From: Patella caerulea
Lineage: Eukaryota
Direction of reading: 5' to 3'
DNA length: 64,000 nt
NCBI GenBank assembly: GCA_036850965.1
Contig: JAZGQO010000002.1
Location: forward strand, 27,060,901 to 27,124,900
Of this stretch, positions 4,601 to 56,749 are shown one piece after another. Numbering within the stretch: position 1 is the first letter of the stretch; each line of letters opens with the position of its first letter. The translations under genes were made by a program, and so were the position numbers. Under the pieces are notes generated by a model. It made no database searches, was not told where the DNA came from, and saw only the letters and a list, made by a program, of their open reading frames with translations.

Positions 4601-7600
4601 TATAAGCTAGAATCTTACCAGGTCGGCAAGAAGACAACCAGTAGCTACCATCCATTGAACTTGTAATTCAAACGCTGTATTTGGGCGATAGTAGGCATGG
4701 TAACGTGCTGTAGCCCATTCTAATCTTTCACTCTTTTTATTAATATCTACATCCACATTGACAAACTTGTTGTGTTTGGTTGCTGAAACAAAATCAAATC
4801 ATTGGTCAATGTGAACAACAAGTCTCATGAATTAAAGTATAAAACCTCCTTCTCTGAGCTAAGCAAGAGGCAATTCATTTTTTATATCACTGTTTGCATT
4901 CAGTCATTGAGATTCATGTGCATTGCTTGGTGGCAAATTCTTGAAGCTAACCATTCATACTCATCCTTAATTTGTTTTGTTGATCTATTATTTCTGTGTA
5001 TTATTCGTTTACATTGTCTATAAAGAGTTAAACTCTTTTTTTGCAATAATCACCTTTCAAGAACACAGATGCATTATGCAAGGGGTAAATTGGCCGGTTG
5101 CAAGTATTTTTTCTTGCTTCAAATGTTAAATAAATTATTATGTACAGCCCATAATGAACTCTCTAAAACATCTAATATCAATTGGATTAGACCATCCACG
5201 GCATATAATATTTCATTAATGTTAAAATGGACATCACTCGATAGAAGGACTGACTAAAGAATTTGTTTATTATCATGGCAATGGTACTCGACAATCAGCT
5301 ATTTCTTGTCAAGACTTCAACCAATCATAACCTTGTTCAGAATAATTAATTTGACTGAAATTTTCAATATAAACATTTTTTATTATGGAACTATTACAGC
5401 AAATATGGCCAGCTCTTACATAATGCACCTTCAAGTTAAGAGTAGTCAAAATTTCAATGGCTACATTGATATGTATTGCATGGGCCTTGGAAGTATATGA
5501 TGTTAAAATGCATTAAGTAACACTGACAAATGAGAAAGTTAATCAATCATGGAAACATGATGGTGGCTAATTCTAGATTATGACACTACACAGCCTTGAA
5601 ACAGTCAGTTAGCCTACATTAATCGCTGAATAATTGGAAGACCAATTAGCATACATTAATGGTAAACCAATTAGCCTATGTCAATGGCAGACCAATTAGC
5701 CTCCATTATTTGTAAATTTAAGAATGCTAAACCACAATATCAACTACCAGTAATTCATCATATTAAGTTTCAATCTATTATCATTTTCAAATTTCACTGA
5801 AATTTAATTCTATTCAATGTGTAATACTGCACTATAAAAATCTGACAATTTCAAACGGGTAAAATACAAAGAAAAAGAATGACATTAATACAGTACATTA
5901 AAAGCTGAAAGATTGAACTGTGCTGAAAACTAAAATAATAACAAAGTGAGATAGTAAATTAATGTGAAGGAAATAAAAAATTCATGTTAATTAATAAGCT
6001 CCAGCACCAATAAACCATAAACTGGTGATAAAACTGACTAATAAGAAGCTCTCTATTGTTGGATATTACAATATAACATACAGACTGTTATACAAGAGAA
6101 GTATTAACAAGTAAAAATCATTCTCTATGTGTTCAATTATTTGGTTTTAAGCTATATATACAAGCTATAGGTTGTTGTTTATTCCTCATTGTCGGGGACA
6201 GATTCACAAAACCTGAATAAAGGGGAATGGAGGAGGGGGTAGTTTGGGACAGGATATCCCCACATAATATTGATTTCAACTGTGACCATTCCCAAATCCT
6301 CCCCTGAACATTATTATACATTTAACCCTTTGAACACTGACTTTACATGGGGTGTTGCACGTCCCACCCTGGATTTACAGGACGTCATATTAATTATGAC
6401 GTCAAAATAATTGGTGTTTGTACACGCCCAAAGCCGCAAAACTGACATTTCGGGTATATGCGATACAACGTCAAGCCGGTTTTGCGGCATTTCGGGTTCT
6501 AAGGGTTAATATCTGCAGGTGTTTACTTATATTTTCAAGTTTCCAGAATACAAAAACAATGGGTAAATATAGATCCATGACAATGTTCAAGACATCAAAA
6601 CAGGACAAAAAATTGATGATAAAACCAAGGGCTCACTGTAACGTAACACATGTACATAAAGCATTAAATTCCTATATTGAGTTTGGTTAGATCGTCAGAT
6701 GTATATATGTGATATTTTTCAATGTTAAACTTGTTTTGATCCAATACATCTGTGTAGGAATAAAACATGGACTGTAAAATTATTTGATGATTATAATGAT
6801 GTCATTTATAGTAAAAACATTATAAGGTCCACGGTAAATAAACATGACTTGAAGTAAAGGATTACAACACAAGTATTGAAGTTACTCTTGACAAATACAG
6901 CCATTGCTTCAAAAGAAAATTTACATAAATAATTACTGGTCCACCATCTAGACTATAATATTATAAGTTTATCTAAGAATTAATCCAACTAAATAAAGAA
7001 TCTATAAGTGAGTGAAGATTATTATTTTGGTGTTGTTTTGCAAGATGAAGACATAACAACATTTGACAAACTATATAATATAAACACCTTGGCCGTACAA
7101 TATTATTATACTTACCTTTAACTTCACATAGATTGACTTTTCCTGTAAAAAATGCACATGGTAACACACAAAAACATGAAGATGAATGAATAATGAAATG
7201 AAATTGTAAACACATAATGGATCATTTCTTTCTATATTCTTTCCTTAAATATTATTTTGAGACTAACAGATGATCATTTACGATTAGGTATGGAATATAT
7301 TTGCACCCACTTTAAATAACAAGGAATGTTTTATATGAACTACCATTTTTCTTCTCATTTGAATGAGAAGATTGACTTTCCTGTAGAAATCAGATTCGAA
7401 AAATTGCAACATTGTATTCTCATATGACAAAAGATTTGAACTTGGGGAGATATCTTAGTTATGACTCCAGAGTTGGAACCACATGATTATGTATTATTAC
7501 GTCTGATGACAAAAGGTAATCCAGATTTCTATTATAACCCATACTTTTCAGTGTATGTATGTAGTATATATGCTGTTTAAATGTATAATATGTAAATTGT

Positions 7601-10600
7601 ATGTAGTTAAACAAAGCAATCAATAAAAAAATAACATTAACAATAAATAAAATCTTAAAACCCATAAAATCATTTAAACCATAAAATCATCCTGATTTTA
7701 TCAAAACTGGATACTACCTAGGGATATATTCAATAACGGTCACCACGGCCACCAAATAAAGAGTATACAACAATAATTTATATAGGTTAGAGATCTACAG
7801 AATATTATACTAGGCCTACACAATGATAACATAACAAACCTTCTGTCAATTTACAAATATATGTATACGGCAGATTGTAACCTAAGTAAAGGTGGAAAAA
7901 TTACAAGCTTTAGTTTGTTTTTTTTTATTAAAGGTATTAATCAAACGACCACAATAAATTTAAACTATAAAAACTATAAAGTCAGCAACTAAATTTAACA
8001 TAGAACACAAAATTTTAATCTCAGCAAATTTTTAAAAACAAATGCATAAACCTCTGGTTTGTAATATGTGACCACAAAGTATTCAGGAAACATCAAAATA
8101 ACATGTTGTTGAATTTTCTAATATTGTCAATTTTTACACCAAAATTGTTTTTAATAAAGGTACTTTTAATCATCTAGTGTCTTAAACTCTGTCTGTGTTT
8201 AACCTTTATTTTGGCATATTGAGGCTTTAACAGGGAAAACAGGAGGAAAAAACTATTTGAAAACTACTGTTAATAAGATTACTTGATAATTTAATTATAT
8301 ATTTAATCTCTTGATATAAATGTATCCAATATGCAATTAGTAACAACCAAACTATTATTCAACAATTCCAAGATACTTTTTAACAAAATATATCAAGTCA
8401 TGTTCTTACCTAACTGTTGACCTTTATCACGACAATTCAATCCAGATAAAACCCGCCAATCATCAGATTCCTCATCAAATGGTTTAAGTTCCTCATCTCT
8501 CAGATAGAATTTTTTCATTTCTTGAATTTCTTCCTCCTCTTGACAGTGTTTTATAGAAACTTCACAGAATTCATTTTGGAAGAACATATTGTATGGTTGT
8601 CCTGTTCCCAGATTTAAATCTGAAAGAGAAATATGAAATGAAGGGCACATTTAATAATCAGCAAATAACATGATCAAAAATAGTGAAATACAGCTTCTAA
8701 CCAACACCAAATTGTTTTGGTTTACAATAATGTATTCATAGAAAAATATATCCTTGAATAAGACACTTATACACGTACAGTATTGCCATCTACCAAGCTG
8801 TGCATATGTACCAACAGGACTATGTATAATATTACACAAAACAACTGCTCTTTCAGGCTTTCTAAGATATAACAAGCCAACATTGAGGCTGATGTCCCCC
8901 GCCGAAATCCAAAAATAAATAGATGACACATTAATTAATCGCACATTTATTTTTTTCAAACGTATCAAGCAATCAAACTGTACACGAAGTGTCATCCAAA
9001 AGTGTTTTATAAAGAAAAATGCTAAAACCGACTAGAAAAATGAAAATGTACCCTAGTTAGGTGGACCCTAAAGGCAGACAAAAGGGCCCCCACGCTTGAC
9101 AAAAGGGCCCCTCTGGCCAAGGGAAAGGGCCCTTGTGTCCGAGTCAATCTTTTCTATACACTGTTACGGTCGAATCCATTACTGAATGAGAATGCAGTCA
9201 TTGTATTGGCATAAAAATCATCAATCAAGATGAACCTAAGTTATCTTGTCCCAAAGTATCAACCAATCAAATTGCTTATCTCTGCCTACCCTAAGAAGAA
9301 AATGCTCATCTTCGAACTCCATGAAGGCATTGACCTTATAAGCATACACACCGATTTTGAACATTTTAACTCAATTCGAAGGAGAGTTATTGTGTTCCAA
9401 AGTCTCGGCAAATCAAATTGCTTATCGCTCTGCTTACCCTGAGCAGAAAATGCTCATTATCGATCTTAGTCAAGGTATTACTGTAATGAAACTATACACC
9501 AAGTTTCATCACTCTCACTTAATTAGAACTAAAGTTATCGTGTCCCAAAGCATCAACCAATCAAATTGCTTATCTCTGCTTACCCTAAGCGGAAAATGCT
9601 CATCTTTGAACTCCATCATGGCATTGATCGAATAAGCATATACACCAAGTTTGAACATTTTAACTCAATTAGAAGGAGAGTTATATTGTGTTCCAAAGTC
9701 TCGACCAATCAAATTACGTATCGCTCTGCTTACCCTGAGCAGAAAATGCTCATTATCGAACTTAGTCAAGGTATTACTGTAATGAAACTATACACCAAGT
9801 TTCATCAATCTCACTTAATTAGAACTAAAGTTATCGTGTCCCAAAGCATCAAACAATCAAATTGCTTATCTCTGCTTACCCTAAGCGGAAAATGCTCATC
9901 TTCGAACTCCATCAAGGCATTGACCTAATAAACACATACAACAAGTTTGAACATTTTAACTCAATTAGGAAGAGAGTTATTGTGTCCCAAAAAGTGTGAC
10001 GGACAGACAGACAGACAGAAGGACAGACAGACAGACGGACGAACCCATTTTAATAGTCCCCCAACTTTCTTTGAAAGGCGGGGTCAAAAAGAGGAGAAGT
10101 ACATTATAAATAAAACATAAGTTTTACAACTGATTGTAATGCATATTCCGAGATATAATCTTACCTTGTGTTTTTTGTTTAGATGAAGGTGTAACAACCA
10201 TGTAAATATAAAATCCATAAATAAATCTATGTTTAGGATTCCCTGATGCATGAATTATTAATTGATCATCTAATAATTTCTGTAAAAATAAATAATGTTA
10301 TTAAAATATTACTTATAAACTGTCACAGAAAAATGCACTTCACAGAAAAACATCATTGTGTATTCTTAAAAATAAAGATGTTCTTAGTTGATATTTTGGA
10401 GTTCTATTTGCATACTTAAGACCCATTATCAGCAAAAATGACATCATGAAAATTTCTGCTGGGTCATTGATGATGAAAGTAGTTTCAAAACCTTCATTAA
10501 GACCTTTTAATTACATAAAATACATGTATAAGTTCAGACTAATTAAAACGAGGATTATTTGCTGTATCAATCATAATTAGCTATCTTTAGGAAGTCTGCA

Positions 10601-13600
10601 GATATTTACTACATGTACAGCGCTCGAAATTAACCACGGCCAACGGCAAAGCCGTGGTTAAAGCCGACGCAACTCCCATCTGCCACGGCATAATTCATTT
10701 TTTTTTGCCGTGGTAGATCTTACGATCCTTAAAATTATAGTGACACAATGTACCGGTTATAGAATAGTACCAGGAGGATGTCGATTGACCGTGTCATAAC
10801 GTCATGTAAATGTATTATTTTGTATACGAAAGTCTGACAAATATATTGCAATTACAGAATACCGGTACACTTTTAACTAGCATTGCCAAAGGGTTTTTAA
10901 ATACACAAAATGTCTCTAAAATAACTATTTCACTGTCAGTGTCAACTATTTAGATTCAATAATCTGAAAGAATTTTGAAAAAATATTGAAAATTAAAAAA
11001 GTTATGGCATTTTAAAGACGGCGAATTGGAGGCATTAAAATACGGCTTTTTTTAAAAATGCAAAAAACCTGACCAAAGCTAATATCTCAGAAACTATAAC
11101 AGGTACATTCATGTAACTTGCAGAATTTGAAGTTCGAGATGTACTTGATCAGAGAAAATTATCGCGAGACTCCTCGATTATATTGTTTATATACTATAGA
11201 CCGTCGAACTTACGACCGAGACAATTTACGTTCAAGGTCACAGCAAAAAAACGACCTGACAGTTAATAACAAACCATGTAGAATTCTCAGGGCTTTGAAA
11301 TCTTTACCCAACCCATTTCTTGATGTGATGGATACACAAATAATGTTTTCACATTGTTATCGTATTTATTTATTAGACACCAGCTCCTCGAATTGCATTT
11401 CTTGTCAATACCATGTCAAGGTCATACAGAAAGTGTAAGGTCACTGGTCAACTGCAGGTCCGGAGGCTATGGAATTTTCACAGGGTCTTTTCCTGGATAC
11501 ATATACATGCAAAAACACATAGAGTCATAGACTGTGTTCATCTTTTAGCTGACAAAACTAGTTGTTTCGAGAGTGGAAAATCACTACAAGTATTATTATG
11601 ACCAATAAAATTTTTATGAAAAAATATTTTTATTTCAATTAACAACCAAAAATAAATGAAATATCAGAATTTTTCTGGGTCAAAACTTCTGACCAATATC
11701 TAACAATAACAGAAAACAAAACTGTACATCATGATCAACATCAATCATATGAAAAGTAGTTACTACAAAACAAAACTAAAAAATTAAAACTTAAAAAAAA
11801 ATTAACAATATGTGATATAATCATAAGGATTACAAATGACAAAATATTTTTATTTATTTTTTTTTTGGCATTCATGACTGGACAGCATCAAAGTCATCTG
11901 CAAATACAAAACATATAGGTGCATAAGCCAAAGTAATCGAATGTTATGATATTATTAACCAAACAAAGAATCACCCTTCCTCTAAACATAACAAATATCT
12001 CTGGTTTATAAAATTTAAAAAAAAAACATATACAACAATGCTTAATGAGTAAAAACAAATGCATACAATGAGTAAAAACATTGCATACAATGATAAAAAT
12101 ATCAATGCACAAGGCACATTTTCGTTTTGCCTGATGTCAAGTCAGTCTTATGTAGGGATATATTTTTCTCAAAATTCAATGTTTTTACAAGTAACCTTAT
12201 TAAAATAAAATAGAAATTGATACTGACATTTTGCAAAAATCATCTAAATACTTCACACTAAAATAAGTCTGATTTGCAAAGGTTAGATACAAATAATTAT
12301 TCACTGTGGTCTGACCCCCTACACGCATCTACCAAGAGTTGTCTTTCCCCGATTTCTCCCCGGTTCCACTTTCTGTCTTATTGCCAATTCCTACGGGGGA
12401 TTTCGGCAAAACAAAAGCTCAAACTATACAAAATATATATCAGGCTATCCAAAAATGCCGATATCTCGAGCGGAATGCTCTTTTTTTTCAAAGTTTCTAT
12501 TACATTTAAAAATTAAAAACATGAAAAATAAACGAAAATTCGTTCAAAATATTACCTGATATGGCAGTCCGCGAACTTCATCTCACTAGCTCCCGGAAAA
12601 GTGCCACTACACCACGTTTTGACTTCCTGAATATTAGTGAGACCCCGTAATAGAAACGGTACCAGTGTCACAAAGTCATCTTGTATAAATATTGATCAAA
12701 TGCGAATAAATTTGTTAACGTAACTGATATTTTTCAATTTGCATAACCAGGAGATCGTTCGCATGTTTTTGAGCTCGCACGACCACACGTAACCGATTCG
12801 CGTCAAATTTTGTGACGTGAATAAATAAATTTTATCCATCTTGAAATGAATAGTTAAGAAAGGCATTGATCTTGAAATGAAAAAAAAAGGCTGTGGTGCC
12901 GTAGCAATACCATTCTGCCACGGCATTTTTCATTTTTTTGTGCCGTGGTAGAAAATTCTTAATTTCGAGGACTGCATGTATGCCTCTTGAACAAAACCCT
13001 GCTTTATTAAGTGCAAAACACTGATTTTCAGCCTCATGTGTGGACATTTGACATGATTTTACAGCTTATAAAAAAAAATTATATGTCCAATTTTTTTATA
13101 TTGAGTAGAAAACATGTTGGGATAACTTTTGAACACACGTTAATCTCAAGGTCACGAGTTCCACAAGGTCAAGATCAAGGCCAAAGTCTATGTCAATGGG
13201 CCTTCAAAATTCACCCATTGTCAAAAATAAAGATATTTGGAATCCTTGTGGAATTCCCATTCCAGAAATACTCATTATAGCAATTTTGACTTACTGGTTG
13301 CTGAGTAACGGTCAAATAAATAATGGTGGCTACGCTCATTTTGGCCAAAAGCCCCAAAATTGAGACAGTCATATCTCTGCAACCGTTGGTCGGATCAAGC
13401 TAAAATTTGAAATATCAGTTTTTCCTGCCCAAATAAACATATTATACATCAAATTTCAGCTGAATCAATGGGGGTACGCTTTAACTCATTGAGTGATTTG
13501 ACACGGAATGTCCCCCGTTGAAATTTAGAACATCAATCGAAAAAATGGGGTTTAACAGTTATCACTCATCACAGACTTTTCGTGACTAAAATATGGTAAA

Positions 13601-16600
13601 TATTTGCCCTCATGCAGAGACATTTTAGAGAAAGTCCACATGGTTAGGCAGGCAACCATACACAATGTCACATTGAACCACTTAGACACCCATTGCCCCC
13701 CAAACAGTAAGACACATTAGATTAAAAACTTGATTGTCCTGATTACAATTTATAGAGTAATAAGTACAATAGTACCTGCATTAATTGTGAAGCTTCTGGT
13801 ACAGTTTTAACACCATGTATATTCTGTATACACCATGTAACACACTCAGCTGATATAAAACAATTCTCTTGTATTCCAGGTTGTTTAGGTAGAAAACATA
13901 GACCATTTCTATTAAAACATATTTCACAATTATTTATAAATAAGGATTGTATTTACAAAATCCTCATAAGACTATATATAAACCATTTTAAGAGACTATA
14001 ATAGTAGAGTTTTAGACCTTTGTACCGAAGAATGTTGTCGTTGCTGGGCTTTGATCGTGTTTGCTCACCACACTATATTTATCAATTTTCAGCATTTTCC
14101 GAAATTATATCTCGATTATTGCCCTTATTATTGTAAAAAAAGGGACATTTTAACTTGTGATGTCAACTGGCAGATTATCCCCATTCACGAGACTGTCAAA
14201 GCTGGTTGCATTATTTCTATTAGATCTTCCTTGTAAATCATTTATTATTTTTCATTTTGAATTAAGCCTGTATCATTACAGGTCTGGGACTGTACAGTTG
14301 AGTGGGCACTTAAGGCTGGCCTCTTGATTCATTAATTTGATTTGATATTTGTTGTTTATTTCTTGTAATGTCTGTATAGTTTGTCTTGTCTTCAGGTTTG
14401 TCTTATTAGTTTTGTTTGTGTGTAATGTGGTCCTCCTGCACATTACAGTGTAAGCTTGCTGTCTATCGTGGACTGTTAGCAATTGTTGCAAATTACAATG
14501 AAAACAGGAGGTTTATCCACAGCAGATTTAAACCAAGTTTATATATTACAGTAACTAGCAGTCGAAAGGTCTGGGAAATATCTAACTAATAAATAGGATG
14601 TTTCTGATAATTGTAAATTGTATGAGAATAAAAAGAAAGATATGAAACTTACTGTAGATCCATCATAGCTTCTACTATTTTAACTGACGGTGAACTACAG
14701 GTGATTTCTTCTTTGTGTATATGTCTATAATATAAATTGTGATCTAGATGTACATGTATTTTACAATCAAATAACTTTTGTGGTCAGAGAGTTCACAAGG
14801 AAATTTAATAGGCTTCATTCTCTCACTAATCAAATTTGAACAAGTTAGATTTATATAATGATAACATTTGTCACTAGATTCTACAAAGACAACAAGTACA
14901 TGGTTTCTTTGTCTCATTCATCTAAACTCTAGCTGTAATTAATTGAAAAGGTTGAAATTCAATAGGCTTTTTTTTATAATTAACTAAATGATGTATACAA
15001 ATTTCAGGTTTATTGTATTTTCTTAATAAAGAATTCTATCAAGTGATCAAGGACAATAAGTCTAAAAGTGATTATTACAAATCAATGAATTCAAAAGGAT
15101 TCTTTGTCTAACTAAAAATTGCATACATATTTCAAGAAAATCGAATAATAACCTTTGTCACAATATTCTATAACGTGAGCAATAGCCATAACTGCAACAG
15201 TATTATAAAGCACAACTGTTGAAAGTTCATAAGACATGTTTTTCTTATTTACCTGAACAATGAAGATATATTTCAAGCTTGAAGTTATAATCAGTTAGAA
15301 ATTTCTGTAATTTAATAGGCTTTGTCTCACTAATTGTGAATAACATAGAAAAGATTGGAAAATAAATGAAGGCTGTAAGTGTTTCAGGGGGAAAAAGATA
15401 GATGTACGGACGGATGGACAGAACAGTTTCGATACAATTTTCTTCTATTACATGAATTACAAAGTTAAGTTAGAGAATTATATCTTACTTGTCATATTCA
15501 GGTTTATTAGGACTAGAATCAGGTGTTAGATTAACTCCTTCAGGTGGTAAATTCACCTAAAATAGATAAAATACAGATGTATCTGATCATTAAAACTAGT
15601 TTACAAAATTATCTTTAGTGCAATTCTACATCCATTATCCAGTGACGTATGTTGGAACATAATGTTTTGGGTAACAAATTTCATTTTCCTTTTTAATTAG
15701 GATAGGTTTGACAATTGATAATTATGTAATTAGAATTATGTCAAATTTGAACAGAATGACATTGATATCTGTATCAAACTTACTCGAGATTTTCTGGTTT
15801 GTTGTGGTCGTTTGATTTTATTGGCAACTTCTAAAAATCTTTGAAAACCAGAAATAAGTTGTTTTAATTCTGTTTGAGTCTTATCTTCATATACATCACA
15901 CCTAGAAAGTATAGAATATATTTCATGTAATACAGATGTTAAATATTTCCTAAGAATCTACTGGTCTAAATAATATTTCATATACCGGTACATCATATTT
16001 CAAGACATTTATTTCATCACATTGAAGGTATGTATGATTATCCAGTATTCATTTTTGATTGTCAGTAACATTTATCAGGTTGCCAATTCAATTGTTTTAT
16101 AGAGTTAACTTTCAACGCGGTTTAATTATTGAGACTGTTTTAATTTCTTATTTCTTTAGATAAAAAACTGTCATGCGCCTCTTTTTAAGTGACGCAGGAG
16201 TATCTGGTAACCAGAAGATTTTCTACTGAATTAAAAAGCTGTATCAAAGTACAGAAACAGTCAATTTAATACATGCAGATTAAAACATATTTATAACCTT
16301 CTTTTTAGCTTTGCATAACTACACTTAAACTAGCCTTTCTAAATACCAGGCAGCAGAAATCAGATCTTTGGTGAATTGATATCTCCTACATCACTTATTG
16401 ATGTAAAGTACTGAAAACACTATATTATATATTTATTTAAATTTGTTTGATTATGAATCTACTTCTGTAAGTTTATAAACAGATATCTACAAGGTATTTT
16501 TCTATAGCATGTGAACCTACCGTGAACTGCCCTCAATAATCTTCTTTGTAGCCGAATTATTACATGGCAGGAGGAAGAAACGACTTCTCCAAAACTTCAA

Positions 16601-49349: not shown

Positions 49350-49407
49350 TTTTAATCTGTGTTGTAACAGCCTTTAGTTTATATTTCTCACGGACTAAAC
49401 CAAACAT
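49350..49407 (-). CDS. DEPDC5: Candidate initiator exon of DEPDC5 (MFGLVREKYKLKAVTTQIK...). The donor (GTTCAA) is weak, so the exact 3' end is uncertain.
   Basis: The ATG at 49407 (minus strand) opens a frame with the 'KYKL' motif, compared with human 'MRTTKVYKLVIHKK'. The phase-1 donor after 'QIK' would join exon 48547-48634 to give 'N-ADIVLNPK'. No better candidate lies upstream within 3 kb. Confidence 0.3.
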
Positions 49408-49800
49408 GTGCTTGACAAACTCACTGCCAAACTTTATCTACGGTAACAACAGCTTTTGTATTGATTTTTCAAGTGAGTAGGCCTACTAGTATGATGCATT
49501 GGGGTATTTAATTGTACAATGGATTTTGTTAACCGGAGGTAATTTCAACAAACAGGTAGGTTTTTAATAACTGTAGTTTACATACATAGTAGAGCCAAAA
49601 AGCATAAATTATGGGTTATCAGCCAATTCGGGCAAGGTTCTTGACTCAGAAATTATTACAGCTCATTATTTTAATGGCAATTGTTACATTATCGGAGATT
49701 TTTATAAAGAGTTAGCCATTCTTGAGTGACAGTTCAAAAACAGATGATAAAAGAAGTAAAAAATTTCAGTACCATTGGGGCTGCAATTCAATTCGTATTA
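49390..49800. repeat. ~410-bp segment duplicated at 51790-52006 plus 54473-54680, where the DNA transposon interrupts it
   Basis: Direct alignment of 'gtgcttgacaaactcactgccaaactttatctacggtaacaacagcttttgtattgatttttcaagtgagtaggcc...' in both copies. The second copy resumes after the transposon at 'ggttcttgactcggaaattattacagctcattatt...'. Confidence 0.8.
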
Positions 49801-49854
49801 CATGTACATTTATTTTTCACTACAAATTAAAAAATGAGACTTTTCATATATATA

Positions 49855-50170
49855 TCTCCTTACTGCTAAATGGCCGCATGTCAGTCCATGTGAACGCCTG
49901 AACAATGTAAATGAACATCTTAGTGAGAAAATAAGAGTTTGATTACCTCGCTAGAACCAGTATGTCCGAAACAACACGCTGTTCTAAACTGTATCCATGG
50001 CATCAACCAAGTTGTTTAGAAGACAGAGACGTATTTTTTAACAGCGTGTTGTGTCGGTCATATACTGGTTCTTATAGCGAGTTAAGCAAGGCCTTATTTT
50101 CTCACTAAGATTCATGTTCATTTACATTGTTTAGGTGTTCACATGTGGCCGTTTAGCAGTAAAAAGTTGC
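49855..50170. mobile_element. MITE-like inverted-repeat element, about 315 bp, with ~120-bp imperfect TIRs
   Basis: 'ttactgctaaatggccgcatgtcagtccatgtgaacgcctgaacaatgtaaatgaacatcttagtgagaaaataag...' at 49860-49960 pairs with its reverse complement at 50060-50170. Sits about 450 bp upstream of the candidate DEPDC5 start. Confidence 0.7.
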
Positions 50171-52413
50171 CCAGTAAAATTGACTGGGGCAGATTCCAGT
50201 TTCGACACGAACGGTATTGAATGACATGGGACCTGGCAAGTGTAATGAGACCTGCATTCAAATTCAGAGCTGAACTAGAGACTTAGCTACTTTAAACTAA
50301 AATGTTTTTCAATAAAAAGAACAACAATTGATTGCTAGCTATCTAGTTCTGTTGTGGACGACATTAGACTGTACTTTTACTACTGAGACCCAGACCAGAC
50401 GATTGTTCTGATCGACAGAAGGCCGGAGTCCATGTAGAGATCAGAGAGGGCTTATTATTAGGCTATCAATCACTGATCAGTCAAATATATTGAAACAAAA
50501 TTTTTAATTTTATGTAGGACTTCATGTGTCTCTTTAATGTACTAGCGTGCAAAAATGCATAATTTCTTATTACCTTTCTGTGTCTTGCTATGAAGCGATA
50601 ATTTATAGGTTTTCATTTTCTAGGTTTCTGACACTACACTACTGACACTGACAGTCGACCGTTCGCCTCCATTTTGACTACTAGAGTTACCTGCCCTTTA
50701 GTGTTTAGAATATTATCTAAATATAAAGGGCCAATCTCATACTCTATGTCCAATCTCGATTAGGCCTATATATTGGAGAATAAAACTTCGTAATTTTGTG
50801 TTAAAGGCCCTAAAAATTATCTACCTAAAGGGGGGGGGTACGCGGCACAGTCTACTGTAGGTATTTAAGAGTTATGGTCGGCATATCTGGGGGGGGGGGG
50901 GCAATTACGGGTCTGACTTAATTAAACCCACCAGATTTCACTGTATTGAACTCTGAATAAAAACGGGCAAACAACGAAATCTTAAAGGGGTTACATGTCT
51001 GCATTAGTGATTTTGATGTTCACGTCCAAACGACTCAATATTTTAAGCTGAAATTTTGAGATAAGGTAAAAACACCATTCATATATTTTGGCGCCTAAAT
51101 TTCATACCTAGCCTACATGGAATTTTATTTTAGAGACTATTAAAATCTGGATTGTCCGGGCCTTTAATTTAAGAGCACCTACAAATTTCGTACTCTTGAT
51201 AGCGAAATGTAGCCTATAAGGGTAGGGGTTCTGTTTACAATTCGTGACCTTGACTTTAAGCTTATTTATCATAGGGCCATACATGTATCTACAATTTGAC
51301 AAGCTCCCATTGAGACTGATTTACATTGGTAGGCCTATTATCCCATTTGTTTATAGTATAAAAGTACATTTAAATAAACTTTGATATGTATAGTATACTC
51401 GTATACACAGACACGTATAGGCTTACCGTATCGGATATAGGCTAGGCCTAATTAACTAATATTAAAAGACGTTTTATGCCTGCTGAGGCGCTGGAGGCGC
51501 GAGCCTCCTCGTAAAAATAAAATCAAAGAAATTGAACAAATAAAACGGGAGAAAAATGCTATAGGCCTAACCAATGAGAAAAAAGAAATGTACCGTAGTT
51601 GGGGGGTGGGGCTAAGGACAGACAAAAGGCCCCCGAGTCTGACAAAAGGCCCCCTCTGGCCCGTGAAAGAGGGCCCTCAAATAGTATAGCCTCCTCGTGA
51701 AAGAAAATCAAAGAACTTGAACAAATAAAACTGGGAAAAATGCTAAAACCAATGAGAAAAATGAAATGTAGGCTACCCTAGTTAGGAACATGTGTTTGAC
51801 AAACTCACTGCCAAACTTTATCTACGGTAACAACAGCTTTTGTATTGATTTTTCAAGTGAGTAGGCCCTATGATGCATTGGGGTATTTAATTGTACAATG
51901 GATTTTGTTTAACCGGAGGTAATTTCAACAAACAGGTAGGTTTTTTTATAACTGTAGTTTACATAGAGCCAAAAAGCATAAATTATGTGTTATCAGCCAA
52001 TTCGTGCAAATTTGGGTGAAACCATTGTGCAAATTTGGGGAAAAGCATGAAATTTGGCACAAACATACTTTAGACTATACTGATCAATCGTGGGGTAAGG
52101 GCCAAAAATATTTCCCACTATTTTTCAAAATGGCCGCCATTTTCAAAATGACCACTAATTATGCTTTAAAATGTTGAGGAGATTGATGATATTGGTTTAC
52201 GGTACCTATATATTGCTTTATGTTATCTCAGAATCATCTTGAATTGCATACTGATGAATGTTTTGATGTTTACAATATCATTTGGTGATTCAAGATGGCT
52301 GCCGAATTCAAAATGGCCGCCGATTCCATAAAAATGTTTAAATGATAGTGAGTAATATCGTCCTGTAGTTTTAATCAAAACTCAATACCAAAATCATCTG
52401 AATATAAATTTAG

Positions 52414-53254
52414 GTGAATGCTTTTTATCTGTTAAAGGTGTTTCTGAAATCAAGATGGCTGCCAAATAAGGTTGCCACGCTCAAAATGGCTGCCAAGTGT
52501 TATATGCTGCGAACTGTTGACACAGATGTAGTTGTCCTATCTACAGCATTGTTCAACCGGATCAATGTGACCGAACTTTGGGTGTCATTTGGTACTGGTA
52601 AGAATTGCAGACTAATTCCAGTTCACACCATTTCCAAGACATTAGGTCCACAGAAATCAATGTCTCTTCTAATGTTCCACGCCTTCACCGGTCGTGACCA
52701 GACTTCTTTCTTTCTTAATCGAGGAAAGAAAACTGCCTGGCAAACAAGCAAAGTATACAAGGATGCTGACGAATCCTTTGCAGTTCTTAGTAGAGCTCCA
52801 CCATCAGTAGAAGAGTTGCATAATCATGTCAACAATTGGGAGATTTGTTATCCTCGTGTATGACAGGACAAGTTCGTGTGAAAGTGTTGATGAAGCCCGC
52901 CAAGAACTTTTTACTCATAAGGGAAGGGCAATTGAGCCAATCCCACCAACCTCAGCAGCACTTTTTCAGCATGCGAAAAGAGCTCTATTTCAGGCCGCCT
53001 ATGTATGGGGCCAAGCCTTGCTACGGACCCCCGAGTTGCCAGACCCATCAGATTGGGGATGGAGAAAAGGAACTTCAGGCATGTGGGAGCCTCTATGGAC
53101 AACTCTACCTGAGGCTTGTAAATCCTGCCAGGAGCTAATCAAATGTGGCTGCAATGTAGATAAAGGATGCCGTGGTCGATGCAAATGTGTCAAGGCAGGG
53201 GTTGCATGTACAACGTACTGCAAAGGCCATGGGGATTGTGAACGCCCCTCTTAG
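52414..53254 (+). pseudogene. Frameshifted ORF of a widely distributed metazoan transposon-type protein. N-terminal region '...RLIPVHTISKTLGPQKSMSLLMFHAFTGRDQTSFFLNRGKKTAWQ...'. Cys-rich CxC-like C-terminus 'CKSCQELIKCGCNVDKGCRGRCKCVKAGVACTTYCKGHGDCE'.
   Basis: Two overlapping listed ORFs, 52414..52863 and 52826..53254, are out of frame with each other, which implies one frameshift. The 'HAFTGCD..SxFxGxGKK.AW' motif and the Cys cluster are typical of a repetitive TE-borne ORF seen in many invertebrate and fish genomes. This is pattern recognition, not a database hit. Confidence 0.55.
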
Positions 53255-53380
53255 TGCCAGAAGGGCATTTGGTAGTGTGACTTCACTTATTTTGGCCTTT
53301 CGACATTTGAATGACACATACCAAATGAGGTGAGAAGCAACAGTAACTTGGAACTGTATATGATATAAGAGAGGTTGCGG

Positions 53381-53533
53381 AATCCCGTACGGCAGGCATT
53401 TTCATACGGGATACAGCATGTTTTCATAGTGATTCAATGAACTGTGACCCATAGTTCATTGAATCACAATGAAAACATGCCACATCCCGTATGAAAATCC
53501 TGCCGTACTGGATTCCGCAACCTCTGTATTATC
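53381..53533. repeat. Near-perfect 153-bp palindrome. Hairpin with a ~72-bp stem and a ~9-nt loop.
   Basis: gaggttgcggaatcccgtacggcaggcattttcatacgggatacagcatgttttcatagtgattcaatgaact-gtgacccat-agttcattgaatcacaatgaaaacatgccacatcccgtatgaaaatcctgccgtactggattccgcaacctc. Confidence 0.9.
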
Positions 53534-53799
53534 TTTCTAGTTAAGACTGAGTATTATTGATCAAGGTACTAATCTGCAACAACGTCTGTCATTTTAAATT
53601 AAATGACCATATTGAATTATAATTAATTTTCTGATTAAGCTAGTTTAAACATAAGAATCCACATCAAAACTAAAGTTTGTGGCCAGTAAATTCACATGAA
53701 AGGGACTCGTTTATGGTACCTGGTGAACATTTTTGATTCGAAAGCCATGTTGGATTTTGAATCCCCTGTTTAGTTCGATTTGATCTAATAAGCCCTTAC

Positions 53800-54330
53800 A
53801 ATAAGCCAAATTACTGTAATAATGGCGGCCATTTTCAATTTGGCGGCCATATTGGATTTTAGAACATACCTTGTTTACTTGAACTTAAAAAGATATGTCG
53901 ATCCTACATTTAGATGTATATTTAGTCAATTGTAAGCGCATCATGCATAATGAACATCATAATTACTGTAATAACGGTGGCCATTTTGAATTTGGCGGCC
54001 ATATTGGATCTTAGAATATCCTGTTTACTTCAATATGGTCAGATATGTCATATCCTGCATGAAAATGTATATTTAGTTAATTGTAAGGACACTACAGATA
54101 ATAAGCTCTTGCTAAAAACAATATTACTGTAATAATGGTGGCCATTTTGAATTTGGCGGCCATATTGGATTCTAGAGTACCCTGGTTACTTGAATTTGGT
54201 CAGATATGTCAGATCCTGCATTTATATGTATATTTGGTCAATTCTAAGCACATCACAGGTAATAAGCTCTTACAGTAGACAAAATTACTGTAATAATGGT
54301 AGTCATTTTGAATTTGGCGGCCATATTGGA
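53800..54330. repeat. ~120-bp x 4 tandem array inside the DNA transposon. Each unit has paired ATGGCGGCCAT motifs ('taataatggcggccattttgaatttggcggccatattggat').
   Basis: Four direct units. Related isolated motifs: 'aaaatggccgccatttt' (52131), 'caagatggctgccgaattcaaaatggccgccg' (52288) and 'caagatggctgcc...caaaatggctgcc' (52449-52492). Confidence 0.8.
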
Positions 54331-56749
54331 TTTACAGACAGAAACTCAATAGGCCCTTACCCACAAGTTAATAAGCACGTAAAAAGCTACCTTTGTGCCA
54401 ATTTTCACGCTTTTCCCCAAAAGTGCACAATTTTCTTGTATTGACTCACCATATTGCAGTACTACAAGGTTCTTGACTCGGAAATTATTACAGCTCATTA
54501 TTTGAATGGCAATTGTATTTAAAGATACATAATGGGAGATTTTTATAAATAGTTGGCCATTCTTGCTATGCCAGTTCAAAAATAGATCATAAAAGAAGTA
54601 AAAAAATTCAGTACCGTTAGCTTATTCGGTTTTAGATGGGTCTGCAATTCAATTCGTATTACTATGTGGCACCGTTCAGTTAAAATGGAATTAAATAGGA
54701 ATTTACTGCTGATTTGATATCAATATTAATGAGGTTGGATGGATTTTAAACATGTTTAAGATTCACGAGAGTTTAATATTAGAATGGTCCATTAAATTTA
54801 ATATCGCCATTATAATAATATGCTTCAGTCAGTACTGGACGGGATTTTTCCAAGCCAGGTTGGTTTAATCTTTTATAATTGAGTAGCATTCTACATGTAT
54901 ATCCGAGCTCTGCAAGGTTTTTATTGTTGTTTTGTTGTTAATTCTAATATTATTAAATCAGAGACATATAAACCAATACAGTTTAATTAGTGCTTCTGTT
55001 GGTAATTGATGAGGGGCGCATACTTTGCTTGTAATGCTATACAAGACTCGGCTTGCCTTTTTTACAAAGGTCAGATGAATATAGCTGCTTCAAGAAAAAG
55101 TATTATTTGTTATATTTATCCTAAATGAGAATTAATAAATATCCAGACAAGCATCACAAAAAGTAAAATTTACATTTTTTCGCCGGGTTCTATGATCAGA
55201 TGGTACGTTTATGAAATACACGTGGGTTTACTGTTAATTTGCACTTAGTTTAAATTCATTCAGGCGGCTACGTTGTTTTTGAAGATCTTGCAATGAATTT
55301 GGAAATAATAAAGAAGTGAATGGCCTAAGTGAATGGCCTATGAGCAACTGCATATGCAGTTCTTGGTGTTAGAAGCAATTTAAACACAGATAGGCATAAT
55401 ATTCTAAATTCTATCCGTACAATGACTGGTAACCAGCAACTACTTTAAAGCCCCAATAACACTCTTGTTGTTACTAATTAATATATCCCAATCTTCATTC
55501 TGGTCAACAAATTGTATTATTTTAGAACATTCCAATTAAATGATGATATAAATTTCATCTTAACACACCTATTTGGAAAAATTGGAAAAATTCAACCAAT
55601 TGATTTGAAAAGTCTAACGTAAGCCTTTTCAAATGTGACTTGGATTTTGAAATATTTTCGAACCATCTGGACAAGTAAAATAGGTTGTAATGGATAATTT
55701 ACACAACAGGTAGGACACTTAAACATCTAGTACTTAGAATATGGGTATTATTTATTTTCTGGAGCTACCAAGCCACCAAGAATGTTATTGTCCCTTTAAG
55801 ACAAGGGTGATGTGCTCATGGGATGATGCACGACTTACAATACGGGCAGCTTTGTTTTGGGTGTTCTGCAGTATTTGGAGCGATTTGTTTGGAAGACCAT
55901 AAGCAAGTTGTAGTAGTCTAGTTTGGATGTCATAAAGACGAAGTTTACATTTTTTTTATAGAGATGATAGTTACCTCATTTACAAATATTAGTAATGTGA
56001 CCAAGCAGAGACATGTTAGTTAAGTTTAATCAATATTCTATTCAATAAGCTGAATTGGATTGAACAACAGGCAAAGGCCTATATGGTGAACATATGTACC
56101 AACAGTGTGTTACAAACAAATGATATATTACCTGGAGTGTAGTTTAAGTTTTAAATGTTAAAGTGTTAAAATCTCTTGCTGTCTTTCACGTTTGCACTAT
56201 TTCGCACATGTTAGAATTGGTATTATCTGAAAGATCAGGACTGCCATAAATATATAAGATCAGGTCAGTTGTAATATTTTGTTTAAGGTGGTGTAGATTA
56301 TTTTTGACATTTGTTTTGGGGGCAGAGTATGCTGGACATATGAAAAATAATATTTTATGTAGAATTACGCTTAGGACACTCTTTTGTTTTACTAATAAAA
56401 TGGTAAAATAAGTGATTGTTTAAATTACTAGCCTTTTTTCTTAATTGACAATGGATAATATTGTCTTTCCTATTTCCAGTATTATAACAGCGTAGTGGGC
56501 TTATTACAGGATACCCACGTGAAAGTCACAATTTAAGTGCACTTAACGTTTGTGCGGTTTTAATAATTTCAGGTAAGTTGTTCCGAAGTTTAATTGTGCA
56601 GGGAAAGAACAATTAGAATATGAACTTGGTTTACAAAATGGTAGATTGAGGTTCAGATTTTCATTATGAAGGTTACAATTTGACACTGACAGATAAATTA
56701 GACTTAGGTTTAACAAAATGGTAGATTGGGCTCAGATTTTTATTATGAA

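Follow-up and report, generated by a model that had tools for sequence, protein, structure and literature searches.

A decayed, internally deleted DNA transposon, very probably of the AcademX type, inserted in one of two paralogous host segments of Patella caerulea

The 2,455-bp insertion at 52010-54464 of the window, by which we mean the whole 64,000-nucleotide stretch of Patella caerulea DNA analyzed here, is very probably a decayed, internally deleted and non-autonomous copy of AcademX (Academ superfamily, DDE cut-and-paste DNA transposons) that is now immobile. BLASTN within the window aligned 49403-49635 with 51787-52009 (92% identity), 49633-49773 with 54465-54615 (85%) and 49778-49805 with 54638-54667 (93%), and the trinucleotide CAA is common to both flank alignments, where they overlap, and to the empty site at 49633-49635. 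Since 49403-49805 thus matches 51787-52009 plus 54465-54667, approximately 2,455 bp (~52010-54464) were inserted at a CAA target. The original prediction, a DNA transposon in one of two paralogous ~400-bp segments with 49390-49800 collinear with the split copy, is borne out by this alignment of filled and empty sites, with the insertion limits shifted from 52007-54472 to ~52010-54464 (plus CAA at 54465-54467) and the start of the host segment from 49407 to 49403. Only two copies of the host segment occur in the window. Because both 49403-49805 and 51787-54667 are repeats, the ATG at 49407, which lies inside the repeat, should be used cautiously in gene models. The features of the insertion and its empty site are as follows.

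49403-49805, forward strand: uninterrupted host-segment paralog, the empty site (BLASTN), with the target trinucleotide CAA at 49633-49635
51787-52009, forward strand: left half of the split host segment (BLASTN, 92% to 49403-49635)
52010-54464, forward strand: non-autonomous AcademX element of 2,455 bp, in which a 159-bp insertion is nested (BLASTN, termini of relatives, published termini)
54465-54667, forward strand: right half of the split host segment (BLASTN)
54465-54467, forward strand: CAA, target-site copy at the right junction (BLASTN); possible left copy at 52007-52009

The bases at 52005-52009 (TGCAA) may belong to either host or element, and homology with other element copies begins at 52005.

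The ends of the element were compared with relatives on contigs from environmental-type assemblies (L001-L005). L001 and L002 start with TAG(C)ACTGCAATATGGTGA, and the right end of the window copy, ...GCAGTACTA followed by CAA, is the exact inverse and fits the terminus defined in the relatives without deviation. The aligned termini read TAGCACTGC in L001, TAGACTGC in L002 and TAGCACGGC / GCGGCACTA in L004. The true element terminus is TAGYAC.../...GTACTA, which the right end of the window copy retains, while the left end has lost ~11-12 terminal bases, TAGYAC(TGCAAT). In the full-length relative L004 (6602-13713, 7.1 kb) the termini TAGCACGGCAGATTGGTGA / TCACCAATCTGCGGCACTA are flanked on both sides by AGC, a 3-bp target-site duplication (TSD). 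Animal AcademX elements make 3-bp TSDs, and their termini have a 5' pyrimidine and a 3' purine (Kojima, 2020, Mob DNA 11:15, PMC7165386); L004 follows both rules with its TAG...CTA termini, of which the window shows the right one only. The published Acropora AcademX families (Academ-4 to 9_ADi and N1-N4_ADi) likewise have 3-bp TSDs, with termini TAGTCYGG...CCRGACTA. The right junction of the window copy is exact (CTA|CAA) and the empty site reads GGCAA|GG; the left CAA is ambiguous as a TSD because the left terminus is truncated, and may be the element's own TGCAA. Right ends were not found for L001, where there is a second, inverted partial copy, or for L002, where homology stops at window position 53170, so that the two-sided TSD evidence comes from L004. 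The trinucleotides flanking the defined termini are CAA in the window, AGC on both sides of L004, and ACT and AAG at the left flanks of L001 and L002, respectively.

Inverted repeats lie inside these termini: 40 nt at 52024-52063 and 54392-54431 are 90% identical and extend to 80 bp at 79% (52024-52103 and 54352-54431), and a 22-mer from them occurs at these two sites only in 64 kb, against an expectation of 0. Subterminal inverted repeats had been reported earlier and are indeed present, with the true termini (TAGYAC.../...GTACTA) located further out.

52024-52103, forward strand: left subterminal inverted repeat (repeat search); its inner 40 nt are the inverted repeat reported earlier
54352-54431, reverse strand: right subterminal inverted repeat (repeat search)
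54446-54464, reverse strand: right terminus, intact (TCACCATATTGCAGTACTA); in reverse complement, TAGTACTGCAATATGGTGA, it matches the left termini of L001, L002 and L004, in agreement with the published AcademX TAG...CTA

Two copies alone give no direction of change, and the left junction is imperfect, so the 2.46 kb might be ancestral and the paralog at 49403-49805 the product of deletion or excision. This is highly improbable, as the extra DNA stops exactly at a terminus defined independently in L001, L002 and L004, and the empty-site junction holds a single CAA. Excision by DDE cut-and-paste transposases usually leaves a footprint rather than one restored copy of the TSD, which again argues for insertion.

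The coding remnant of the element ties it to a known transposase. The window ORF shares 69% identity (E=2e-119) with the last ~240 of the 940 residues of the related protein P0122 (residues 703-939). It retains the second half of an XPG/FEN-like nuclease, with RTVDTDV and HAFTG[C>R]D, and the C-terminal Cys-rich finger; the transposase domain is missing entirely, as is half of the nuclease domain. Compared with three related copies, the ORF has lost 2 bp after 52825 and is thus frameshifted, as predicted, and, with its missing domains, degenerate in coding capacity.

52504-53254, forward strand: AcademX transposase ORF remnant, corresponding to P0122 residues 692-939 (protein comparison), with its stop codon at 53252-53254

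P0122 residues 7-298 are 50% identical to the transposase domain of Academ-2_BF (E=1e-89), with matches also to Academ-5_SP (E=3e-82) and Academ-3_HM (E=1e-74), while other AcademX clades are 22-25% identical (E ~1e-10). The longer relatives P0131 (E=2e-114, against Academ-2_BF) and P0192 (E=2e-101) span the published domain from end to end. These reference domains were taken from machine-read PDF text of Kojima (2020) Data S3 and may contain errors, which are immaterial since the E-values are too strong to be affected. In a Pfam scan of five full-length relatives, weak DUF6589 matches over the transposase region were the only result, with neither KDZ nor any CxC family among them; the ORFs of the window and of L003 yielded no usable Pfam match, PDB sequence searches with P0025 and a family profile returned nothing meaningful, and a literature search for DUF6589 recovered unrelated rust-fungus work only.

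The ORF had been regarded as an unnamed, widely distributed cargo. Its wide distribution stands, with ~940 homologs among database proteins of 240-440 aa, none with a Pfam domain and several beginning with Met, and these matches would suit a TIR transposon of some other, unknown superfamily carrying an independent ~430-aa gene for a nuclease and CxC cluster. We consider that arrangement very unlikely. In L003 the sequence of the ~430-aa "family" runs on upstream into an ORF of 655 aa with the transposase domain, and the L005 "protein" of 433 aa is the final part of a continuous, single-frame tblastn alignment of 1,078 columns to the 1,122-aa P0192, interrupted by stop codons only. Moreover, proteins of ~930-960 aa are the common full form among the relatives, the Met at which the short proteins start lies within the longer P0139, and the architecture agrees with published AcademX, whose animal elements code for a single large protein that combines transposase, XPG nuclease and Cys8 finger (Kojima, 2020, PMC7165386). 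By comparison of these sequences, the ~430-aa database "family" consists of gene-caller fragments of ~940-1,500-aa proteins, and the ORF in the window is the C-terminal ~250 residues of a single large AcademX transposase rather than cargo. Many metazoan proteins of ~240-960 aa annotated as "uncharacterized" or "hypothetical", with no Pfam domain, can accordingly be assigned to the AcademX transposase, which keeps them from being taken for genes of the host or for an ORF family of their own.

The AlphaFold2 model of P0122 (pLDDT 86.4, pTM 0.79) predicts an XPG/FEN-like nuclease domain, of which the window keeps the second half only; Foldseek matched the model to Xrn2, Rad2, XPG, FEN1 and T5 FEN, all of the FEN/XPG nuclease superfamily. 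Sequence searches against Pfam and PDB sequences found no match to XPG, and the assignment therefore draws on the predicted structure and the published description. Identity to the FEN/XPG 5' nucleases (XPG/Rad2, FEN1, EXO1, GEN1, Xrn1/2, T5 exonuclease) is just 9-14%, with no Pfam XPG match, and in contrast to them the domain here is fused to a transposase; the family is not mentioned in a classification paper on the PIN superfamily. The Cys cluster CxxCx6CGCx4-5Cx3CxCx7Cx3CxCx3C forms the C-terminus of all aligned relatives (~53120-53245 in the window) and is the putative Cys8 zinc finger of AcademX; this part of the P0122 model has low pLDDT (50-60). Some sources label the Cys-rich finger Tesmin/TSO1-like CXC.

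Toward both ends the element carries repeat arrays in mirrored orientation. A 120-bp tandem array had been described; its period is in fact 152-161 bp, with four copies at 53786-54337, and it belongs to the element itself, as a subterminal repeat with a mirrored counterpart at the opposite end.

52124-52500, forward strand: left subterminal repeats, three units ~147-165 bp apart, each with (C)AAAATGGC(C/T)GCC in forward orientation
53786-54337, reverse strand: right subterminal tandem array, four units of 152-161 bp with the motif GGCGGCCATTTT in inverted orientation

All 11 matches to the subterminal motif in the window fall within the element, against 0.13 expected. The arrays are shared with L004, and these two AcademX families conserve them although their ORFs are only ~72% identical. 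Because they are mirrored at the two ends and conserved between two families, the (TT)CAAAATGGCGGCC arrays are candidate binding sites of the C-terminal Cys-rich finger, an idea we regard as rather unlikely; if correct, it would make the finger the element's end-recognition module. Another part of the transposase could equally well recognize them as ordinary subterminal repeats. The motif also resembles the metazoan YY1/PHO consensus, AAGATGGCGGC, and contains a CHR-like core, TTTGAA, and through these resemblances a host factor could be recruited instead of the finger.

Among published transposons the closest are the AcademX families Academ-2_BF, Academ-5_SP and Academ-3_HM. They share with the relatives of the window element a single protein with DDE transposase (DNIDHN ... 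FDQP ... GGLH ... HEQ), nuclease and finger, as well as TAG...CTA termini, a 3-bp TSD (in full-length L004) and occurrence in molluscs, whereas the window copy holds only the last ~250 codons, is frameshifted and has lost its left terminus. The long subterminal arrays with the AAAATGGCGGCC motif are not mentioned in Kojima (2020, PMC7165386), which credits Kapitonov and Jurka (its reference 8) with the first description of Academ and characterizes the superfamily further. The nearest published family is ~50% identical at the protein level, which makes the window element a separate family; its annotation is routine. Similar deletion derivatives, ~2.5-3 kb long, that end in TAG...CTA and have TSDs of 3 bp are known from Acropora (Academ-N1 to N4_ADi) and Nematostella (Academ-N1 to N5_NV, formerly DNA-3-x_NV), and the subterminal TGTGCACCTTTGGGCTAAAA of Academ-N2_ADi resembles TTGTGCACTTTTGGGGAAAAGC of the window; these belong to another host phylum. 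AcademH shares the Academ-superfamily transposase and, in several families, TAG...CTA-type termini, but has its own 9-10-bp TSDs and a separate superfamily II helicase, with neither XPG nor Cys8 finger, whereas L004 has a 3-bp TSD and its 7.1 kb holds just two ORFs, both of the transposase protein.

If the insertion were instead a non-autonomous CACTA/CMC or PIF/Harbinger element, both being superfamilies with 3-bp TSDs, that had picked up part of an Academ gene, this would account for the 3-bp junction overlap and for the CACTG-like junction of L001 (C|ACTG). Such an origin is scarcely credible: ACTG is preceded by C, G or T depending on the copy, the terminus is TAG(Y)AC rather than CACTA, none of the flanks CAA, AGC, ACT and AAG is the TWA of PIF/Harbinger, and full-length L004, with identical termini and motif arrays, encodes Academ protein only. 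The CACTA/CMC assignment (EnSpm, Mirage, Chapaev), which arose from the L001 junction, was dropped once four more termini had been aligned, the C before ACTG being present in one copy only, and PIF/Harbinger was rejected as well, there being no Harbinger transposase or Myb-like ORFs. Also set aside were the CxC-carrying KDZ/Zisupton elements, given the Pfam results for the five full-length relatives; Helitrons and hairpin-ended elements, given the TIRs, the mirrored arrays near the ends, the TAG...CTA termini and the nested nature of the large hairpin, described below; and a self-standing ORF family of XPG and finger only, given L003 and L005.

The element had also been credited with a 153-bp perfect hairpin.

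53369-53527, unstranded: nested palindromic insertion, foldback or MITE-like, 159 bp, with no counterpart in L001

This hairpin is 89% self-complementary (fold dG -78 kcal/mol, z = -21), and its absence from the homologous position of the sister copy L001 marks it as a later nested insertion, outside the Academ element proper. Searches for further copies in the window, L001, L002 and L004 gave chance-level matches only (E=0.46).

An autonomous element of this kind is ~7 kb long, has TAG...CTA termini and subterminal arrays of the AAAATGGCGGCC motif as putative transposase-binding sites, and encodes one ~1,500-aa protein comprising DDE transposase, XPG/FEN-like 5' nuclease and Cys-rich zinc finger. 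Taken together, these data suggest that a deletion derivative that lost the transposase-coding part and kept both ends would have been moved by transposase acting in trans into a CAA trinucleotide of one copy of the ~400-bp host repeat, duplicating the 3-bp target as in animal AcademX. Later decay, in an order that we infer, removed another ~500 bp of the ORF, introduced the 2-bp frameshift and the C>R substitution in the TGCD motif of the nuclease, deleted ~11-12 nt at the left junction, probably via GCAA microhomology, and added the nested 159-bp palindrome. The window copy has diverged by ~8-15% from its sister copies.

An AcademX deletion derivative without transposase-coding capacity sits at a CAA trinucleotide in one of two paralogous host segments of the window. 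BLASTN aligned the uninterrupted segment (the empty site) with both halves of the split one, bearing out the collinearity claimed in the original prediction: 49403-49635 matches 51787-52009 at 92%, 49633-49773 matches 54465-54615 at 85%, and 49778-49805 pairs with 54638-54667. A more sensitive search of the window found no third copy of this ~400-bp segment. Both flank alignments share the trinucleotide CAA, which leaves ~2,455 bp (52010-54464) as extra sequence in the second host copy. The main features are:

49403-49805: uninterrupted host segment, empty site
51787-52009 and 54465-54667: host segment split by the insertion
52010-54464: AcademX-type insertion
TAGYACTGCAATATGGTGA: AcademX terminus of this element
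TTCAAAATGGCGGCC: subterminal repeat motif
52124-52500 and 53786-54337 in the window, 6725-6761 and 13231-13584 in L004 (a full-length relative): sites of the (TT)CAAAATGGCGGCC motif

Two related contigs from environmental-type assemblies, L001 and L002, start their homology at window position 52005, both with the sequence TAG(C)ACTGCAATATGGTGAAACC, and the right end in the window, ...TCACCATATTGCAGTACTA with 54464 as its last base, is the reverse complement of that start. The previously quoted inverted repeats do exist (40 nt at 90%, reaching 80 bp at 79%, with a 22-mer core confined to these two sites within 64 kb), but because the right end is the inverse of the L001 and L002 start they are subterminal, and the terminus is TAGYAC...GTACTA. 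The right junction reads CTA/CAA/GGTTC in the window and GGCAA/GGTTC at the empty site, which appears to fit exactly the rule of TAG...CTA termini with a 3-bp target site duplication (TSD). The element would have been mobilized in trans by an autonomous AcademX transposase, through cut-and-paste transposition with a 3-bp staggered target cut. Production of the empty paralog by deletion is unlikely, since the extra DNA stops exactly at a transposon terminus defined independently and the empty site holds a single CAA.

The left end in the window (...AATTCG/TGCAAATTTGGGTGAAACC) lacks TAGYAC, which is consistent with a junctional loss of 11-12 nt. A deletion between two GCAA microhomologies may have taken out host GGCAA together with element TAGTAC, or host CAA may have been kept and 12 nt of the element lost. 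This copy is now immobile because its left terminus is gone. A single unit stands in two tandem variants at 52004-52048 (GTGCAAATTTGGGTGAAACCAT / GTGCAAATTTGGGGAAAAGCAT, 86%), one forming the terminal ~22 bp and the other the adjoining 22 bp, an arrangement also seen in L001 and L002; similar to these units is the subterminal TGTGCACCTTTGGGCTAAAA of the coral element Academ-N2_ADi. CACTA, PIF, KDZ and Helitron were considered, and the defining features of each are missing here.

The joined ORF of the window has 941 homologs at E<=0.001, none of them with a Pfam domain, and its best named homolog is a Patella caerulea protein at 95% identity. Related DNA copies were retrieved through exact-protein look-ups of close homologs; L001 and L002 share 85-92% identity with the window copy across the ORF region. 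By reference to L001, L002 and L004, the frameshift is caused by a 2-bp deletion after 52825, and a further ~500 bp of ORF present in L001 (3224-3722) is missing from the window copy. In another related contig, L003, a 655-aa ORF lies upstream of the homologous ORF; residues 1-500 of this ORF make up a further conserved domain, and its C-terminus is the N-terminal part of the ~430-aa "family". Used as a query, it returned 984 proteins, typically 930-960 aa (largest 1,122 aa), from sources including cnidarians, crustaceans, Ciona, hagfish, teleosts and Patella, with weak DUF6589 matches in a few of the long relatives. A tblastn alignment to another relative, P0192, runs in a single frame over 1,078 columns with intervening stop codons, and the 433-aa relative P0025 is just its final open stretch. 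Together with the upstream continuation in L003 and the 930-960-aa relatives, this alignment indicates that the ~430-aa ORF is no independent gene.

Transposase-domain sequences of published Academ families, copied from Data S3 of Kojima (2020; PMC7165386), were compared by BLASTP with the retrieved proteins. Academ-2_BF matches P0122, a 940-aa Academ protein encoded on L004, at 50% identity (E=1e-89) and another relative, P0131, at E=2e-114, and P0122 is also matched by Academ-5_SP (E=3e-82) and Academ-3_HM (E=1e-74); more distant AcademX clades (Academ-1_CGi, Academ-2_Lgigantea) reach ~23% identity at E ~1e-10. The window ORF is 69% identical to P0122 residues 703-939 (E=2e-119), and Academ coding sequence in the window is limited to this remnant. 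These matches, with the L003 ORF, the long relatives and the P0025 alignment, contradict the proposal that the transposon carries an independent cargo ORF of an unnamed family. What the window holds is a decayed, non-autonomous AcademX copy of an ordinary kind, which adds a new family member to a superfamily that is known but little studied. Two Academ transposase fragments among the database proteins, P0164 and P0198, carry bacterial labels from their source, as MAG proteins of Desulfocapsa sp. and Sedimenticola sp., probably reflecting animal DNA that contaminates metagenome bins.

An AlphaFold2 model of P0122, with 67 aligned relatives as input (pLDDT 86.4, pTM 0.79), gave Foldseek matches to Xrn2, Rad2, XPG, FEN1 and T5 FEN, while Pfam and PDB sequence searches returned no match to XPG nuclease; the predicted fold supports the published "XPG nuclease" label. 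A coupling of this nuclease to the cell's DNA-repair proteins while the element transposes has been put forward as speculation (Kojima, 2020; PMC7165386).

L004 encodes P0122 and an upstream 588-aa ORF bearing the first catalytic motif, AVDNIDHNPSS. Its element, placed by inverted repeats at 6602-13713 (7.1 kb), ends in TAGCACGGCAGATTGGTGA and TCACCAATCTGCGGCACTA with AGC at both flanks as a 3-bp TSD; published Acropora AcademX elements have TAGTCYGG...CCRGACTA termini and 3-bp TSDs. Reverse-transcriptase (RVT_1) ORFs adjoin the Academ copies of L002 (3291-4310) and L004 (13711-14331), indicating repeat-rich neighborhoods. On L001 the ORF region is partly repeated in inverted orientation (6021-6889, minus strand), tail-to-tail with the first copy and separated from it by >1 kb of 150-160-bp repeats, which is either a real nested/inverted arrangement or an artefact of the low-coverage (2x) assembly.

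The motif AAAATGGCGGCC occurs 11 times in the window, all within the element (0.13 expected), in plus orientation on the left and minus on the right, and is found subterminally in L004 as well. (TT)CAAAATGGCGGCC is conserved across two AcademX families whose ORFs are ~72% identical; it resembles the YY1/PHO consensus AAGATGGCGGC and has a TTTGAA core. The conserved, mirrored AAAATGGCGGCC arrays are candidate binding sites and the sole mildly novel thread here. The tandem array, put at 120 bp in the original prediction, has four copies with a period of 152-161 bp.

Likewise, the supposedly perfect 153-bp hairpin is a palindrome of ~157-159 bp, 89% complementary, which folds at dG -78 kcal/mol (z = -21; 53369-53527). 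No second copy of it was found in the window, L001, L002 or L004, and its absence from L001 indicates a nested insertion in the window copy; its flanks (TATAA/G...G/TATTA, vs TTATTA in L001) are compatible with a TA, TWA or 5-bp TSD.

The host segment itself is a two-copy repeat bounded at both ends by ACATGT-like sequence. The ATG at 49407, which the original prediction tied to DEPDC5 in a link that looks doubtful, is part of this repeat; it reappears at 51791 and opens a short ORF that ends at a donor-like CAAG/GTGAGT. Directly downstream of the empty segment, 49860-50162 forms a ~300-bp inverted repeat or palindrome (74% over 323 columns).
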